This document shows positions 59,372 to 64,000 of a stretch of DNA of 64,000 nt, piece by piece. The position numbers were made by a program, and so were the translations under genes. The stretch covers positions 31,234 to 95,233 of the forward strand of contig CAURUO010000002.1 of NCBI GenBank assembly GCA_963528515.1, written 5' to 3'. Source of the stretch: an uncultured Candidatus Saccharibacteria bacterium (GTDB lineage: Bacteria > Patescibacteriota > Saccharimonadia > Saccharimonadales > Saccharimonadaceae). Within the stretch, counting starts at the first letter, position 1; each line of letters begins with the position of its first letter. The notes beneath the pieces were generated by a model. The model did not search any database. It was given only the letters and a program-made list of their open reading frames with translations, and was not told where the DNA came from.

Positions 59372-60970
59372 TCAAGAGACAGCCGCTCTAATCAGTCCAG
59401 CAAACAGCGGATGCGGCCGCATTGGCCGCGAACGAAACTCGGGGTGCGCTTGCGTTGCGACAAAATAGCGGCAATTTGGCGCCTCGACAAATTCGACTAG
59501 CCGCCCGTCTGGCGACAAGCCCGACACCGTCATGCCGCCGCGGGCAATCTCATCTAGAAACTGCTGGTTCACCTCATATCGGTGGCGGTGGCGCTCCTCG
59601 GTGTGATCCGACTGATATACCTTAGAAGCAAGCGACCCTGGCGTGAATACTGCTGGATAATTGCCCAGCCGCAACGTACCGCCAGTCGATTCTTTGCCCT
59701 CTTGGCCAGGCATAATATACACCACATCATGCGTCGTAGCATCGTCAAACTCCGTGCTGTTAGCATCGTCGAGCCCGGCTCGCCGCGCCGCCGCAATTAC
59801 CGCTGTCTGCAAACCTAAGCAAATCCCCAAATACGGCACATCGCGCTCAAGCGCATACTGCGCTGCCGCAATCTTGCCCTCAATCCCGCGCGGGCCAAAG
59901 CCGCCTGGCACCAGCAGAGCATCAACTGTCTCGAAATCGCGCTCGGTAACTGTTTCGGCATTGAGCCACTTGATATGCAAACCAACATTTTCATGCCAGG
60001 CCGCACTCTTGAGCGCCTCGGTCACCGATAGATAAGTATCCTTGTTTTCCATATACTTAGCAACTAAACCGACAGTCACAATATCAGCTGGTTTTTTGCT
60101 TTGCAATTGAGTTAACGCTTGCCATTTCGCGAGATTCGGCTGAGCAAAATTACCAGTGAACTTATCGAGAATGGTCATCAGCGGGCTAGCGGCTATCCGC
60201 TCGGGAATCATAAATACGGTATCGAGATTTGGCAGCATCAGCACGCCCGGCAAGTCAACGCCACCGTACAAAGCAATTTTTTGAGCAACCAACTCAGGCG
60301 CCGGCTCGTCGCTGCGGACAACCACAATCTCTGGCACAATACCAAAACCGCGCAAATCATTTAAGGCATTTTGCGCCGGCTTGCTCTTGAACTCTTTACT
60401 GGTATCAATAAACGGCACATAAACCACATGCGCGTATAAGCAGCGTTCCTTACCGATTTTGTGAGCAAATTCGCGGATCGCCTCGATGAAGCTTAACCCC
60501 TCGTAGTCGCCCACTGTACCGCCGATTTCTACGATGTGCACATCGCTGCCTTGGCCAGCCGCAATAATTGACTCTTGAATGGCATGTGTTAAGTGCGGGA
60601 TTAGCTGGACAGTTTTGCCGTGAAACTTACCAGCGCGTTCATCGGTAATCAATTCTGAGAGTAAGCGTCCCGCCAGCGTGGCGTTTTTCTGCGTCAATTC
60701 TATATCCAAAAACCGTTCGTAATGCCCGAGGTCGAGGTCGGTTTCAGCGCCATCGCGCGTCACGAAGCATTCGCCATGCTCTGCCGGATTAAGCAAACCC
60801 GCATCCACATTGAGATACGGGTCGCATTTCTGAATTGACACTTTAATACCCTTGGCTTGCAGTACCGCGCCGATGCTCGCAGCGGTGATTCCCTTACCTA
60901 CCCCCGAGAGAACGCCGCCAGTTACGAAGATATATTTTGTCTGTTTGCCCATGTATGATTGCTCTTTCAT
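59372..60970 (-). CDS. pyrG: CTP synthase
   Basis: TGGVLSGVGKG, DPYLNVD, ETDLDLGHYERF, GICLG, RHRHRYE, HPE. Confidence 0.98.
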   Translation of the reverse strand: MKEQSYMGKQTKYIFVTGGVLSGVGKGITAASIGAVLQAKGIKVSIQKCDPYLNVDAGLLNPAEHGECFVTRDGAETDLDLGHYERFLDIELTQKNATLAGRLLSELITDERAGKFHGKTVQLIPHLTHAIQESIIAAGQGSDVHIVEIGGTVGDYEGLSFIEAIREFAHKIGKERCLYAHVVYVPFIDTSKEFKSKPAQNALNDLRGFGIVPEIVVVRSDEPAPELVAQKIALYGGVDLPGVLMLPNLDTVFMIPERIAASPLMTILDKFTGNFAQPNLAKWQALTQLQSKKPADIVTVGLVAKYMENKDTYLSVTEALKSAAWHENVGLHIKWLNAETVTERDFETVDALLVPGGFGPRGIEGKIAAAQYALERDVPYLGICLGLQTAVIAAARRAGLDDANSTEFDDATTHDVVYIMPGQEGKESTGGTLRLGNYPAVFTPGSLASKVYQSDHTEERHRHRYEVNQQFLDEIARGGMTVSGLSPDGRLVEFVEAPNCRYFVATQAHPEFRSRPMRPHPLFAGLIRAAVS

Positions 60971-61019
60971 GGGCCCTTATTATAGCATAACCGCTTAGAG
61001 TACGCTATATGTAGCGTGT

Positions 61020-61193
61020 CTATTGGCAACCCTCGCACATAGTTAGTGTTGCCGGATCAATTGGCGCTGATGGCAGGCCGTCAGCTTCAGCTTTTTGATC
61101 GACTTCAGCCTGTGCTTTGGCTATCTCGCGTTCAATCGCCTCGAGTTTTTCCTCAAGCGTCATGTCGTCGTTAATTATCGCTGATGGATTCAT
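61020..61193 (-). CDS. 57-aa protein ending in CEGCQ; candidate stand-alone RNR redox-tail protein
   Basis: MNPSAIINDDMTLEEKLEAIEREIAKAQAEVDQKAEADGLPSAPIDPATLTMCEGCQ; SD AAAGGGGG 5 nt upstream; below the ORF-track cutoff. Confidence 0.8.
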   Translation of the reverse strand: MNPSAIINDDMTLEEKLEAIEREIAKAQAEVDQKAEADGLPSAPIDPATLTMCEGCQ

Positions 61194-61256
61194 TATTTCC
61201 CCCTTTACTTATATTCATTATAGGCTAATAGACCGCTTATTCAATTGCTAAAACTG

Positions 61257-62255
61257 TTACTTTACGGTGTTAACCTCATAGTTCGTATTGGTGCTTTCAA
61301 AGAAATTGACTAATTCAAGCGTATCGTTGGCCGCCGCCATCCACTTGGCTGGATTAGCTACATTGTATTCTTTCTCGAAGCCTAATTCTTCTAGGCGGCG
61401 GTCAGTCATGAACTTGACATACTGGTTCACGTAATCCGCGTTCAAGCCCAAGATACCCTTTGGCAACATGTCTTTGTTGTAAGCCTCTTCAAGCGCCACC
61501 GCCTGCAAAATCAGATCGCGAATCTCATCGGCGAATTCTTGCGTCTGCAAATCTGGGTTCTCGTCAAGAATTGTCAACAGCAGGTTAATACCGAAAGTTA
61601 AGTGCAGATTTTCATCCTTGGTAATCCAATCTAGCAAACTGCCGACATTGCGCAGCAAATTACGCCGGCGAAAACTCATGCCAACCATAAAACCGCTATA
61701 GAACCAAATACCTTCGAGCACAATATTATAAGCTACCAGATTGCGCACAAAATCTTTCTTACCCTCGGTAGTAGTAACATCCAGCTTATCATTCAGCATG
61801 CGGCCGACATACTTGGTTTGGAAATCAGACTTGTCTTTCAGGCTTTTCTTGCCGTAGCCGGCCGCGTAAATTTCTTGGCGGTCAAACGGAAACGTTTCAA
61901 TAATGTATTCAAAGGTCATAAAGTGGTTAGCTTCTTCCCACATCTGCTTCGACAGATATAAGTGCGCCTCGGCGGCATTGACGTATGGATAAATACCAAA
62001 AGCTAACGACTTATTGATAAGCAATTCGTTTGGGTTCAGATAACTGATTACCGTCTTCAACGCGTGTTTTTCGTCGTCGGTCAGCTTCTCGAACGCCGCC
62101 AAATCTTGCACTAGTTGTACTTCATTCGGGAACCAAGTGTTCGCAACTGCCTGATTATACAAATCCATCGCCCATTGGTAGCGTACTGGCTTGAGTTGCA
62201 AGCCGTCGCGCAGGCCCGATCCCAAAATACCTTGCGGTTGTGTTGTTTGCGTCAT
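61257..62255 (-). CDS. nrdB: Ribonucleotide reductase beta subunit, class Ic-type
   Basis: W.P.E, NE (ligand 1), EEANHFMTF, LEGIWFYSGF, DENLH, NFFE...TNY. Confidence 0.95.
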   Translation of the reverse strand: MTQTTQPQGILGSGLRDGLQLKPVRYQWAMDLYNQAVANTWFPNEVQLVQDLAAFEKLTDDEKHALKTVISYLNPNELLINKSLAFGIYPYVNAAEAHLYLSKQMWEEANHFMTFEYIIETFPFDRQEIYAAGYGKKSLKDKSDFQTKYVGRMLNDKLDVTTTEGKKDFVRNLVAYNIVLEGIWFYSGFMVGMSFRRRNLLRNVGSLLDWITKDENLHLTFGINLLLTILDENPDLQTQEFADEIRDLILQAVALEEAYNKDMLPKGILGLNADYVNQYVKFMTDRRLEELGFEKEYNVANPAKWMAAANDTLELVNFFESTNTNYEVNTVK

Positions 62256-62288
62256 ATTTCCTCCTTATTATTGTGATTTTATCAACGT

Positions 62289-64000
62289 TTATGATTGTTT
62301 GCGGCGGGCAAAGCCGAAACCGCTCACCCTTTTCGCGCTGTCGGTACGAACTTTCTGTACTGATTGCGACGTGACGGTGGTTTGCTCGGATTGATGGCGC
62401 GGCTTGACATGCAGATAATATGTCGTTTTCAAACCGCGGCGCCACGCTTCTGAATAGATTTCGATATATTCATCAATATCGCGCGACTCCAGGTACATAT
62501 TGCGGCTAATTGCTTGGTCGACCCATTTTTGCGCTCGCGCCGCCACCTCGATAAAAGCGTATGGACTCAGCTGAAAACTAGTTTTGTAGACATCGCGGAC
62601 TGCTTGCGGAATTTGCTCGAAACCTTGGATATCACCCTGATTCGCCAACAAGTCGTCTTTGAGAGATTCCCACAGATTAAGTTGTTTGAGTTTACGCACT
62701 AAATTAGCATTAACCTCTAGGAATTTGCCGTTGAGCGTACTGCGGCTAAAGATTTGGCTAAACTGCGGATCAAGTCCTGGCGTCGTACCTGCCACATGCG
62801 AGATATTAGCTGTCGGCGCGATCGCCATCAAAGTTGCGTTACGCATACCTTTTTTGACTTTTTGGCGCAGCGCTTCCCAATCCAGGCGCGATTTACTATC
62901 AATTTTTACCTTAACGCCGCGCTCTGTTGTAAGTTTATCAACAGTATCGACAGGCAATAAGCCCTTGCTCCAGCCGCTGCCAGCAAAGTTCGGATAACTG
63001 CCGCGCTCGGCTGCTAGATTGGCTGATTCATCAATGGCATGGTAGCTGATAAATTCAGTTAGCTGGTCAACCAGATCATAGGCAGCTTCGCTTTCATAGC
63101 TAATCTCTAGCTTCTCCAAAACATCCGATAAACCCATATAGCCGAGCCCGAGCGCTCGATTCTGCTCATTACTATGCATAGCTTCGGTAACTGGCGTGTT
63201 CGTGATATCAATCAAGTTATCTAACTGGCGCGTGGCGGAGCGCACTGATACCGCCAAACGATCCCAATCCCAAGTCTTATCAGCATTGAGAAAAGCCGAC
63301 AAATTCATACTAACCAGATTACAGGTCGCAATATTATTTTCGTCCTCGGGCAAAGTTATTTCGGTGCACAAATTACTGAGGTGGATTGTCCCGGTGTTAT
63401 TGTTGAGCGCCCGCAAATTGATGGCATCCTTCCAGGTTAGCCAAGGGTGTCCAGTCGCTTGTAGACTACTGAGAATCTGGCGGAATTGTTGGCGGGCCGG
63501 CACGACTTCGAAGCGGTTAATTTTACCAGCTTCTGCTAGTTTGATATATTCCTGGTAGCGGCGGCTAAATGCTTCGCCGTATAGTTCGTTTAAGTCGCTA
63601 ACTTCAGCTGGATCAAACAAATACCAATCCTGCCCGCCTTGCACGCGCTTCATAAACTCATCCGAAATAAACACCGCCGTATCTAGAAATCGCGTCCGCA
63701 AGTACGGATCACCCGAATTCTGGCGCAAATCGAGGAATTGCGAGAAATTAAGGTGCCAGTTCTCCATATATGCTGCCGCCGCACCCGCTTTCTTGCCCTT
63801 GCGCGACACCGCAAACAGCGCCGTATCAATCATTTTCATGAACGGAATAGGACCAGTTGACTCGGTATTGGTGGTTTTGACAGGGCTGCCAGCGGCGCGC
63901 AGCTTATTCATACTAATGCCGATACCACCAGTACCTTTAGCGATGAACATGGTATCGCGAATACTTTTGGCTATCGAAGCCATATCGTCTTGAACTTCCA
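62289..64000 (-). CDS. nrdA: Ribonucleotide reductase alpha subunit (5' part outside window)
   Basis: GGIG, SNLCTEI, TCNL, RALGLG, AIAPTA, QKWVDQAIS, GLKTTYYL. Confidence 0.97.
   Translation of the reverse strand, partial: EVQDDMASIAKSIRDTMFIAKGTGGIGISMNKLRAAGSPVKTTNTESTGPIPFMKMIDTALFAVSRKGKKAGAAAAYMENWHLNFSQFLDLRQNSGDPYLRTRFLDTAVFISDEFMKRVQGGQDWYLFDPAEVSDLNELYGEAFSRRYQEYIKLAEAGKINRFEVVPARQQFRQILSSLQATGHPWLTWKDAINLRALNNNTGTIHLSNLCTEITLPEDENNIATCNLVSMNLSAFLNADKTWDWDRLAVSVRSATRQLDNLIDITNTPVTEAMHSNEQNRALGLGYMGLSDVLEKLEISYESEAAYDLVDQLTEFISYHAIDESANLAAERGSYPNFAGSGWSKGLLPVDTVDKLTTERGVKVKIDSKSRLDWEALRQKVKKGMRNATLMAIAPTANISHVAGTTPGLDPQFSQIFSRSTLNGKFLEVNANLVRKLKQLNLWESLKDDLLANQGDIQGFEQIPQAVRDVYKTSFQLSPYAFIEVAARAQKWVDQAISRNMYLESRDIDEYIEIYSEAWRRGLKTTYYLHVKPRHQSEQTTVTSQSVQKVRTDSAKRVSGFGFARRKQS

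Follow-up and report, generated by a model that had tools for sequence, protein, structure and literature searches.

A protein of 57 amino acids (aa), encoded just behind the genes of a class I ribonucleotide reductase (RNR) in an uncultured Candidatus Saccharibacteria bacterium, is probably the former C-terminal tail of the catalytic subunit NrdA, detached by a single gene fission and acting as part of a three-gene, class Ic-like RNR. The genes occupy positions 61020-62430, minus strand, of the stretch that we analyzed, 64,000 nt of contig CAURUO010000002.1, which we refer to as the window (Table 1). Re-reduction of the active site falls to a disordered Cys pair at the C terminus in class I and some class II RNRs (10.1101/2022.04.23.489257; PMC6382339). 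In the window, NrdA ends without these Cys residues, and a Cys pair of the same kind ends the separate small protein, which we call the tail protein or the peptide. The comparisons below draw on 101 genomes of the same family, Saccharimonadaceae, on 401 genomes of the phylum and on GTDB species genomes.

Results

NrdA without tail cysteines

The full nrdA gene on the contig (L001:1498-3906) encodes 802 aa and begins with an ATP-cone-like N terminus. Its product belongs to the ten-stranded barrel domain family PF02867 (E 1.4e-159), of which it is the single member in the genome, and to the NCBIfam family NF005101, scoring 1270 bits against a cut-off of 988. With the B12-dependent reductase models listed, it stays under every curated cut-off (TIGR02504: 372 bits vs 399.95). 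The motifs SNCF, SNLCTE, TCNL and GLKTTYYL are all present and align with those of the Pseudomonas aeruginosa enzyme 5im3, the best solved relative; we take the roles of the individual active-site Cys residues and of the YY dyad to be those that are established for such enzymes. To judge from this best hit, the window NrdA may belong to the NrdAz clade, in which Burnim et al. place both the P. aeruginosa and the Chlamydia trachomatis enzymes (PMC9669993).

What NrdA lacks is the end. The NF005101 alignment covers profile positions 3-791 of 822 and leaves the profile end unmatched, the protein finishes with GLKTTYYLHVKPRHQSEQTTVTSQSVQKVRTDSAKRVSGFGFARRKQS-stop at 62289, and there are 0 Cys in the 41 residues past the YY dyad. 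The redox Cys-pair tail that a class I NrdA carries on the same polypeptide is therefore absent. A preliminary description of this stretch had stated that NrdA has no Cys after GLKTTYYL, that its active-site Cys are intact and that only 33 nt separate it from nrdB, and we read the sequence in the same way. It had also allowed that close relatives might expose the truncation as an assembly error. This objection falls, since every NrdA tail of the family that we read has 0 Cys (46 + 3 + 29 + 7 rows, some genomes repeated).

The remaining stub is itself conserved. All family NrdA tails share the pattern HVKPRHxxEQ(S/T)T...GFGFA(K/R). Across 28 stubs, the net charge averages +6.0 (range, +4 to +8), G793, F794, G795 and F796 are invariant, and the stub ends in GFGF(A/T)(K/R). 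GFG or GFA stands at the equivalent place in the closest NrdAs that still carry a fused tail, one of which (L136) has a second GFGG later in its linker. The GFG motif of the stub may serve as an anchor or hinge for the tail.

A conserved small-protein family

The 57-aa open reading frame (ORF), together with its Shine-Dalgarno (SD) motif, stands where the preliminary description had put it (Table 1). By its relatives and its pattern of codon change, it is a real gene under purifying selection. Homologues at E <= 1e-3 occur in 54 of the 101 family genomes. A word-indexed search for small proteins yielded 150 matches at E <= 0.01, with no Pfam domain and with "hypothetical protein" as the meaningful source name (Saccharimonadaceae, Saccharimonadales and Saccharimonas records). 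Searching 1.84 billion representatives of 50% identity clusters with a HMMER profile gave 133 at E <= 0.001, of which 130 are 33-108 aa long and none is NrdA-sized. Matches of 144, 442 and 1,740 aa were rejected as family members, as they matched part of the profile or several short stretches. A word search for fused forms among longer proteins returned 108 candidates at E <= 10, none of which scored, although this is weak evidence. The peptide matched no Pfam or NCBIfam family, and the best match of its profile among solved structures was a designed protein (E 0.034), which is not meaningful.

Diversity at codon positions 1, 2 and 3 is 0.255, 0.176 and 0.556, respectively, among 83 unique coding sequences. 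Synonymous codon differences exceed non-synonymous ones by 20,266 to 9,169 in the last 14 codons and by 16,376 to 6,974 in the N-terminal motif, and this excess of about 2:1 in both conserved motifs argues that selection acts on the protein rather than on an RNA or DNA site. Homologues, database representatives and codon diversity thus bear out the conservation that had been anticipated for the peptide.

Members of the family are about 45-110 aa long. They share an N-terminal (M/L)(T/S)L(E/D)EKLxAI(D/E) motif, a variable acidic stretch or linker, and the end P-x-D-P-x5-C-x-(G/S)-C-(Q/E)-stop, a definition that the window peptide fits. Residues M11, T12, L13, E15, K16, L17, A19 and I20 are invariant in an alignment of 30 rows, as are P47, C53 and C56 in 75 diverse sequences. 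Net charge averages -6.3 in the same 75 sequences, so that the opposite charges of the peptide and the NrdA C terminus, first noted for the window, hold across the family. AlphaFold2, run with the 75-row alignment, predicts a helix at residues 13-38, a short helix at 47-51 and a free CxxC end (mean predicted local distance difference test score, 83.5). Between the long acidic helix and the CxxC end is a short linker that contains Pro. In the long helix, L13, L17, I20 and position 24 are spaced i, i+4, i+7, i+11 and make up one hydrophobic face, which suggests that the helix either packs on a partner or self-associates.

Homology to fused NrdA tails and origin of the split

In all 22 outgroup NrdAs inspected, which come from other Patescibacteria, the tail is longer, contains 2-3 Cys and ends in C-x-x-C-Q/E-stop. 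The three closest are 55-62% identical over the last 267 residues. Their tails run past ...KVNKAxxIGKKGFG..., where the family stub aligns, and finish with ...PVDPQE(K/R)(F/L)xC(E/D)SCQ-stop (ends PVDPQEKFLCESCQ, PVDPQERLQCDSCQ and PVDPQERLNCESCQ; at greater length, VPVDPQEKFLCESCQ, CPVDPQERLQCDSCQ and CPVDPQERLNCESCQ). The end of the window peptide, PIDPATLTMCEGCQ-stop, matches these ends; elsewhere in the peptide family the end reads PVDPQDFLMCEGCQ or PVDPQDLLMCESCQ.

Profile comparisons agree with this resemblance. When the peptide family was compared with the three fused tails, hhalign aligned them at a probability of 95.8% (E 6.7e-9) over 18 columns, with both finishing at the last residue. 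The hidden Markov model of the peptide, used in hmmsearch, scored 20-22.5 bits at fused-tail C termini, against 9.1 bits for the best of 14,218 other genome ORFs. The NrdA stub ends just past the conserved GFG, where the fused tails carry on, and its 41 aa plus the 57 aa of the peptide make 98 aa; past the YY dyad, the three closest fused tails have 84-92 aa.

In a tree of the NrdA core (97 rows; midpoint root, quick-mode search), the 76 tail-less rows form one clade with 99% support in the Shimodaira-Hasegawa-like approximate likelihood ratio test. The sister rows of this clade, L136 and L137, have fused tails, and L138 lies outside. With one tail-less clade, a single gene fission is the simplest reading, and we regard an origin of the peptide by fission of the NrdA tail as very probable. 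The earliest-branching tail-less row, G052, has the peptide gene (pep) in the order nrdA-pep-nrdB. This order fits a split in situ, after which the gene moved behind nrdB, a sequence of events with which G052 is compatible but which the tree does not prove. The helix of the peptide is either new or diverged beyond recognition: a homology to the fused-tail linker that was seen by eye (SDEEKKSADTAAGAQ in L136 vs TLEEKLEAIDAAMANAQ) was rejected because hhalign and hmmsearch do not align the two.

Linkage to tail-less NrdA

An NrdA of the tail-less clade is carried by 56 of the 101 family genomes, full length in 51 and as fragments at contig ends in 5. NrdA and the peptide (E <= 1e-3) occur together in 53 genomes, in every case on one contig and no more than about 2.3 kb apart. 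In two further genomes, G080 and G052, the peptides encoded beside nrdAB are divergent and end in IVDPADAFMCDSCQ and LVDPQDGLICDGCE, so that a peptide gene lies near nrdAB in 55 of the 56. Conversely, 44 of the 45 family genomes without an NrdA of this clade are also without the peptide.

In GTDB, relatives of the peptide are encoded in at least 298 species genomes, a lower bound in that the search, made with the 30-row alignment, reaches closer relatives only. Among the best 80 of these loci, 78 have the gene beside nrdA and/or nrdB on the same strand; the remaining 2 show only the peptide followed by pyrG, and in two listed loci the match lies within 40 nt of the locus start. The order is nrdA-nrdB-pep, as in the window, in about 48 and nrdA-pep-nrdB in about 30. 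The constant neighbors of the peptide gene are nrdA, nrdB and pyrG. A precursor of a ribosomally synthesized and post-translationally modified peptide was considered as another identity and rejected, because the C terminus is the most conserved part and homologous to the NrdA tail and because no modification enzyme is a constant neighbor.

Among the 401 phylum genomes, strong peptide matches occur in 8, all of the same family, and the identical 8 carry a tail-less NrdA. The 7 weak matches elsewhere in the phylum lie inside ORFs of 169-2,238 aa, and the peptide is absent from the 64 other genomes of this sample with an NrdA-like match. The co-occurrence with tail-less NrdA that the preliminary description had predicted therefore holds, in the family (55 of 56) as in the phylum (8 of 8, and 0 of 64 others). 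Its expectation that the peptide would turn up across the candidate phyla radiation and in other phyla does not, since in the 401 phylum genomes the peptide was not found outside one Saccharibacteria family (records labelled Saccharimonadaceae).

One record titled as a metagenome-assembled genome of Verrucomicrobiia (L114) has the order nrdA-pep-nrdB. Its NrdA nests in the Saccharibacteria clade beside L082, and the record is probably a mis-binned Saccharibacteria contig.

NrdB and the redox context of the genome

The best solved relative of NrdB is the R2 protein of C. trachomatis (1syy/4d8f/2ani; E 3e-71). In the alignments to this protein (EEANHFMTF vs EEAVHTHTF; NPNELL vs STAESL), NrdB carries Phe in place of the radical Tyr of class Ia, while Glu is its first metal ligand, and on the basis of these two residues it is class Ic-like. 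The roles of the residues and the Mn/Fe cofactor of class Ic R2 proteins we take as established knowledge; a class Ic-like NrdB would mean that a Saccharibacterium uses a Mn/Fe cofactor.

The genome also encodes a thioredoxin, a glutaredoxin-family ORF and a TrxB-like ORF (314.7 bits, below the cut-off of 343), so that an electron source for a CxxC shuttle exists. Outside the window there is a class III NrdD (G000:C3:3601-5331; PF13597, E 7e-203). The class I enzyme is therefore not the sole RNR, and the genome has both an oxygen-dependent and an anaerobic one.

Layout of the locus and neighboring sequences

The spacers in the window measure 33 nt from the nrdA stop to the nrdB ATG and 63 nt from the nrdB stop to the ATG of the peptide gene. 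In 29 loci with the order nrdA-pep-nrdB, the gap between nrdA and the peptide gene is 8-175 nt, and G-rich, SD-like motifs precede the peptide ATG in the intergenic sequences printed for such loci. The preliminary description had pointed to a possible promoter of the gene's own. The motif is indeed present in the spacer between nrdB and the peptide gene, but a promoter scan of the region found 2 such sites, compared with 2.8 +/- 1.5 in shuffled sequences, and a site at chance level carries no weight by itself.

Table 1. Positions of the genes, motifs and codons discussed in the text
Feature	Position	Strand	Basis or remark
57-aa tail-protein gene	61020..61193	minus	ORF, TAG stop included; encodes MNPSAIINDDMTLEEKLEAIEREIAKAQAEVDQKAEADGLPSAPIDPATLTMCEGCQ-stop
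Peptide residues 13-38, predicted long amphipathic helix	61080..61157	minus	AlphaFold2 and invariant columns
Peptide residues 43-57, APIDPATLTMCEGCQ, NrdA-type redox motif	61023..61067	minus	Conservation and hhalign/hmmsearch
Cys53 codon	61035-61037	minus	Within APIDPATLTMCEGCQ
Cys56 codon	61026-61028	minus	Within APIDPATLTMCEGCQ
Shine-Dalgarno-like GGGGG	61199..61203	minus	Direct reading; 5 nt before peptide ATG
Sigma-70-like TTGAAT-16-TATAAT in nrdB/peptide spacer	61217..61244	minus	10/12 matches; significance not established
nrdB, RNR small subunit, class Ic-like	61257..62255	minus	PF00268, E 8.3e-71; NF007186, 349 bits
NrdA basic Cys-free 41-residue stub after YY dyad	62292..62414	minus	LHVKPRH..EQ.T...GFGFARRKQS; direct reading
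nrdA, RNR large subunit	62289..64000	minus	Last 569 codons and stop; 5' end cut by window
Micro-ORFs of other loci	L091:4406-4486, L092:4416-4451, L103:4412-4453, L110:4402-4479		Between nrdA and tail gene

In four of the 29 nrdA-pep-nrdB loci, the spacer between nrdA and the peptide gene contains a Cys-rich micro-ORF, 11-26 codons long. The products are MTDCTCACNCC, MTDTTCTCSCACC, MDKKCNCSCECCMNCSECNVNLTDDK and MHMNESNNCTCTCDCCKDCKSCTTK, and in L092 and L103 the ATG of the micro-ORF overlaps the nrdA stop (ATGA). The window has no such micro-ORF. These sequences could encode a second small thiol- or metal-binding peptide, or they could be Cys-sensing leaders.

Downstream of the stop of the tail gene is a 6-bp inverted repeat, ACGCTA-CATA-TAGCGT; a terminator scan of the region reported no terminator. 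Directly past the tail gene, at 60975-61000 on the minus strand and just before the start of pyrG (CTP synthase), the sequence TGCTATAAT forms an extended -10-like motif.

Discussion

In the canonical class I cycle, thioredoxin, glutaredoxin or NrdH reduces the tail, which then swings in and reduces the disulfide that forms in each turnover. Since the peptide keeps the exact end of the tail and NrdA has lost that end, the most economical account has the peptide perform this task in trans. On the strength of these sequence relationships, we consider it likely that the peptide would act as an electron shuttle from thioredoxin to the NrdA active site. The free tail protein would use the conserved hydrophobic face of its helix to dock on NrdA or on the holoenzyme, perhaps aided by charge complementarity with the stub, and the helix would in this way supply the affinity that was once given by covalent attachment. 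The CxxC end would then enter the active site and reduce the Cys pair there, and the oxidized CxxC would in turn be re-reduced by the thioredoxin system of the cell.

Translation in vivo, action in trans, the mode of docking and the identity of the reductant are points that we infer. The opposite charges of peptide and stub are compatible with docking but do not test binding. A complex prediction from the NrdA (28-row) and peptide (30-row) alignments gave 0.14 and 0.21, compared with a mark of 0.32, with controls not run. We lean slightly toward a true three-component class I RNR, with a freely diffusing 6-kDa re-reduction arm and a newly evolved amphipathic docking helix. If this is correct, the tail could be dosed, shared between alpha protomers or switched off independently of the catalytic subunit, adding a layer of redox control on deoxynucleotide synthesis that is unseen in characterized class I RNRs. 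The step in which the tail enters the active site, otherwise invisible, could then be studied as a bimolecular reaction in a natural system.

Several observations weigh against a tail protein that acts in trans. No RNA runs covering 60900-63000 are on record. Homology was shown for the last 18 residues of the peptide only, as hhalign detected no ancestor of the helix in the fused NrdA tails, and with a helix of undetected ancestry the protein may have gained another role. In one incomplete genome (G024), a 2,555-nt contig with nrdA and nrdB has no peptide gene downstream of nrdB. Another (G022; 67% complete) has a peptide gene (L163:3123-3296) with neither nrdA nor nrdB within 3 kb. This gene stands between tRNA-like sequences, and no NrdA was found in the assembly; the options are a copy that is not linked to nrdAB and a gene that was relocated and whose partners are missing from the assembly.

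The Cys motif, too, varies in spacing or is lost in a few members. The peptide of G007 (L166:1430-1606) ends in CGDACQ, which is C-x3-C instead of C-x2-C, P0129 ends in SYEGCQ, and P0193 and P0209 end in VSGE; these last three may be degenerate copies or miscalled genes. Finally, given NrdD, the class I RNR need not always be essential, and selection on its turnover could relax, although the conservation of the peptide argues otherwise.

If the peptide does not reduce NrdA, what else might it do? One possibility is that the tail-derived protein binds metal through its CxxC and acts as a metallochaperone for the Mn/Fe site of NrdB or as a factor in its assembly, or else as a redox- or metal-sensing regulator. 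NrdA would in that case be re-reduced directly by thioredoxin or a small thiol. Assembly of the cofactor of a class Ic-like NrdB needs two different metals, the amphipathic helix could dimerize and so gather four Cys, and some loci have Cys-rich micro-ORFs in the spacer that separates nrdA from the peptide gene. Class II enzymes with Cys-free C termini are also on record (PMC9669993; 10.1101/2022.04.23.489257), and for those that are not split the preprint suggests direct reduction by small molecules (10.1101/2022.04.23.489257). We nevertheless judge a metal-binding role unlikely. The end P-x-DP-x5-C-x-x-C-Q-stop is identical to the extreme C terminus of fused NrdAs, for which retained function is the simplest explanation, and the strict co-occurrence with loss of the NrdA tail speaks for a function that was displaced, not added. 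Moreover, no such protein accompanies related class Ic-like systems whose tails are fused (0 of the 64 other phylum genomes with an NrdA-like match).

It is also possible, but considerably less probable, that the peptide inhibits or regulates RNR by occupying the tail-binding or active-site region and is not an obligatory subunit. Small disordered R1-binding proteins such as yeast Sml1, which competes with the CX2C tail of R1, would be a model. The peptide is small, partly disordered and encoded in or beside the nrd operon, and a promoter-like site of its own in the window would permit separate control. However, the match of that site is at chance level, and in about 30 of the 80 loci the peptide gene lies 8-175 nt past nrdA within the operon, which implies co-expression. 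In addition, the redox Cys pair sits on the peptide and the NrdA tail has none, so that without the peptide there would be no tail-mediated re-reduction.

Still less credible is that the ORF is a functionless, decaying remnant of the tail and that re-reduction has been taken over wholly by other means. Some database members are without the Cys motif, several of which look like truncated or chimeric gene calls. Against such decay stand the purifying selection across the family, with P47, C53 and C56 unchanged in sequences as diverse as those aligned, and the retention of the gene in 55 of 56 NrdA-bearing genomes despite genome sizes of 0.5-1.3 Mb. We give the least credence of all to a split that exists at the gene level only, with the tail rejoined to NrdA by read-through, programmed frameshift or post-translational ligation: some gaps in nrdA-pep-nrdB loci are as short as 8-25 nt, but the entire nrdB separates nrdA from the peptide gene in the window and in about 48 of 80 loci, the frame of the peptide gene against that of nrdA is 0, +1 and +2 in 13, 10 and 6 of the 29 adjacent loci, with intervening stops and an SD-like motif and ATG for each peptide gene, so that neither read-through nor a single frameshift can rebuild the fused protein, and Pfam and NCBIfam scans of the peptide found no intein or ligase signature.

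A tail protein acting in trans, as we favor, would have consequences beyond this locus. Because the tail is disordered, its re-reduction step is hard to study in class I RNRs (10.1101/2022.04.23.489257); with a separate tail, this step becomes titratable, trappable and structurally approachable as a complex. A function can be proposed for a family in at least 298 species-level genomes whose members are now called "hypothetical protein" or not called at all. Seemingly truncated NrdAs of Saccharibacteria would turn out complete when the third gene is included, a point of relevance to the metabolic reconstruction of these reduced episymbionts.

Comparison with known systems

Our literature search turned up neither a description of a split class I tail nor a paper on the C terminus of a Saccharibacteria RNR, most subscription journals and the supplements of RNR phylogenies being outside its reach. 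How does the tail protein relate to systems that have been described? It shares its end motif and presumed chemistry with the canonical class I tail, for which CXXC is the consensus and CXXXXC the form in Escherichia coli. Unlike that tail, it is not covalently attached, so that re-reduction would be bimolecular and a docking device needed, and it has an added N-terminal helix. In yeast, the R1 tail can act on the neighboring protomer.

The tail protein is also like NrdH-redoxin, glutaredoxin and thioredoxin in being a small CxxC protein, nrd-encoded, that would deliver electrons to RNR. It differs from these redoxins in having no Pfam or NCBIfam match, a model that is helical only, with no thioredoxin fold, and a CxxC at the extreme C terminus that is homologous to the NrdA tail and not to redoxins, in which the CxxC stands at the N terminus of helix 1. 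The fusion of glutaredoxin to NrdB (NF009398) is another gene-level rearrangement of electron delivery to RNR. There, however, a reductant was joined to RNR, whereas here a part of RNR was released, and the window NrdB scores 95.4 bits with that model against a cut-off of 649.

We propose that the peptides form a new small-protein family, the stand-alone RNR tail protein of Saccharimonadaceae. The closest precedent is the split class II enzyme NrdJa+NrdJb of the P. aeruginosa type, in which the redox Cys module is likewise encoded by a separate, adjacent gene. In that system the catalytic subunit is without the C-terminal Cys module, and relatives as a rule have the module fused (PMC5704485; PMC9669993). 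The NrdJb module is a folded, Cys-rich zinc-finger domain of 150-220 aa with six conserved Cys, in which no sequence similarity to class I tails was detected (PMC5704485). In contrast, the module in the window has 57 aa, two Cys, a helix and a flexible end, and is not an NrdJb. Nor is its partner an NrdJa, which is a class II, B12-dependent enzyme, whereas the enzyme here is class I and accompanied by NrdB. The class I and class II fissions are independent. The redox module of RNR has therefore been detached twice, which suggests that it is functionally autonomous.

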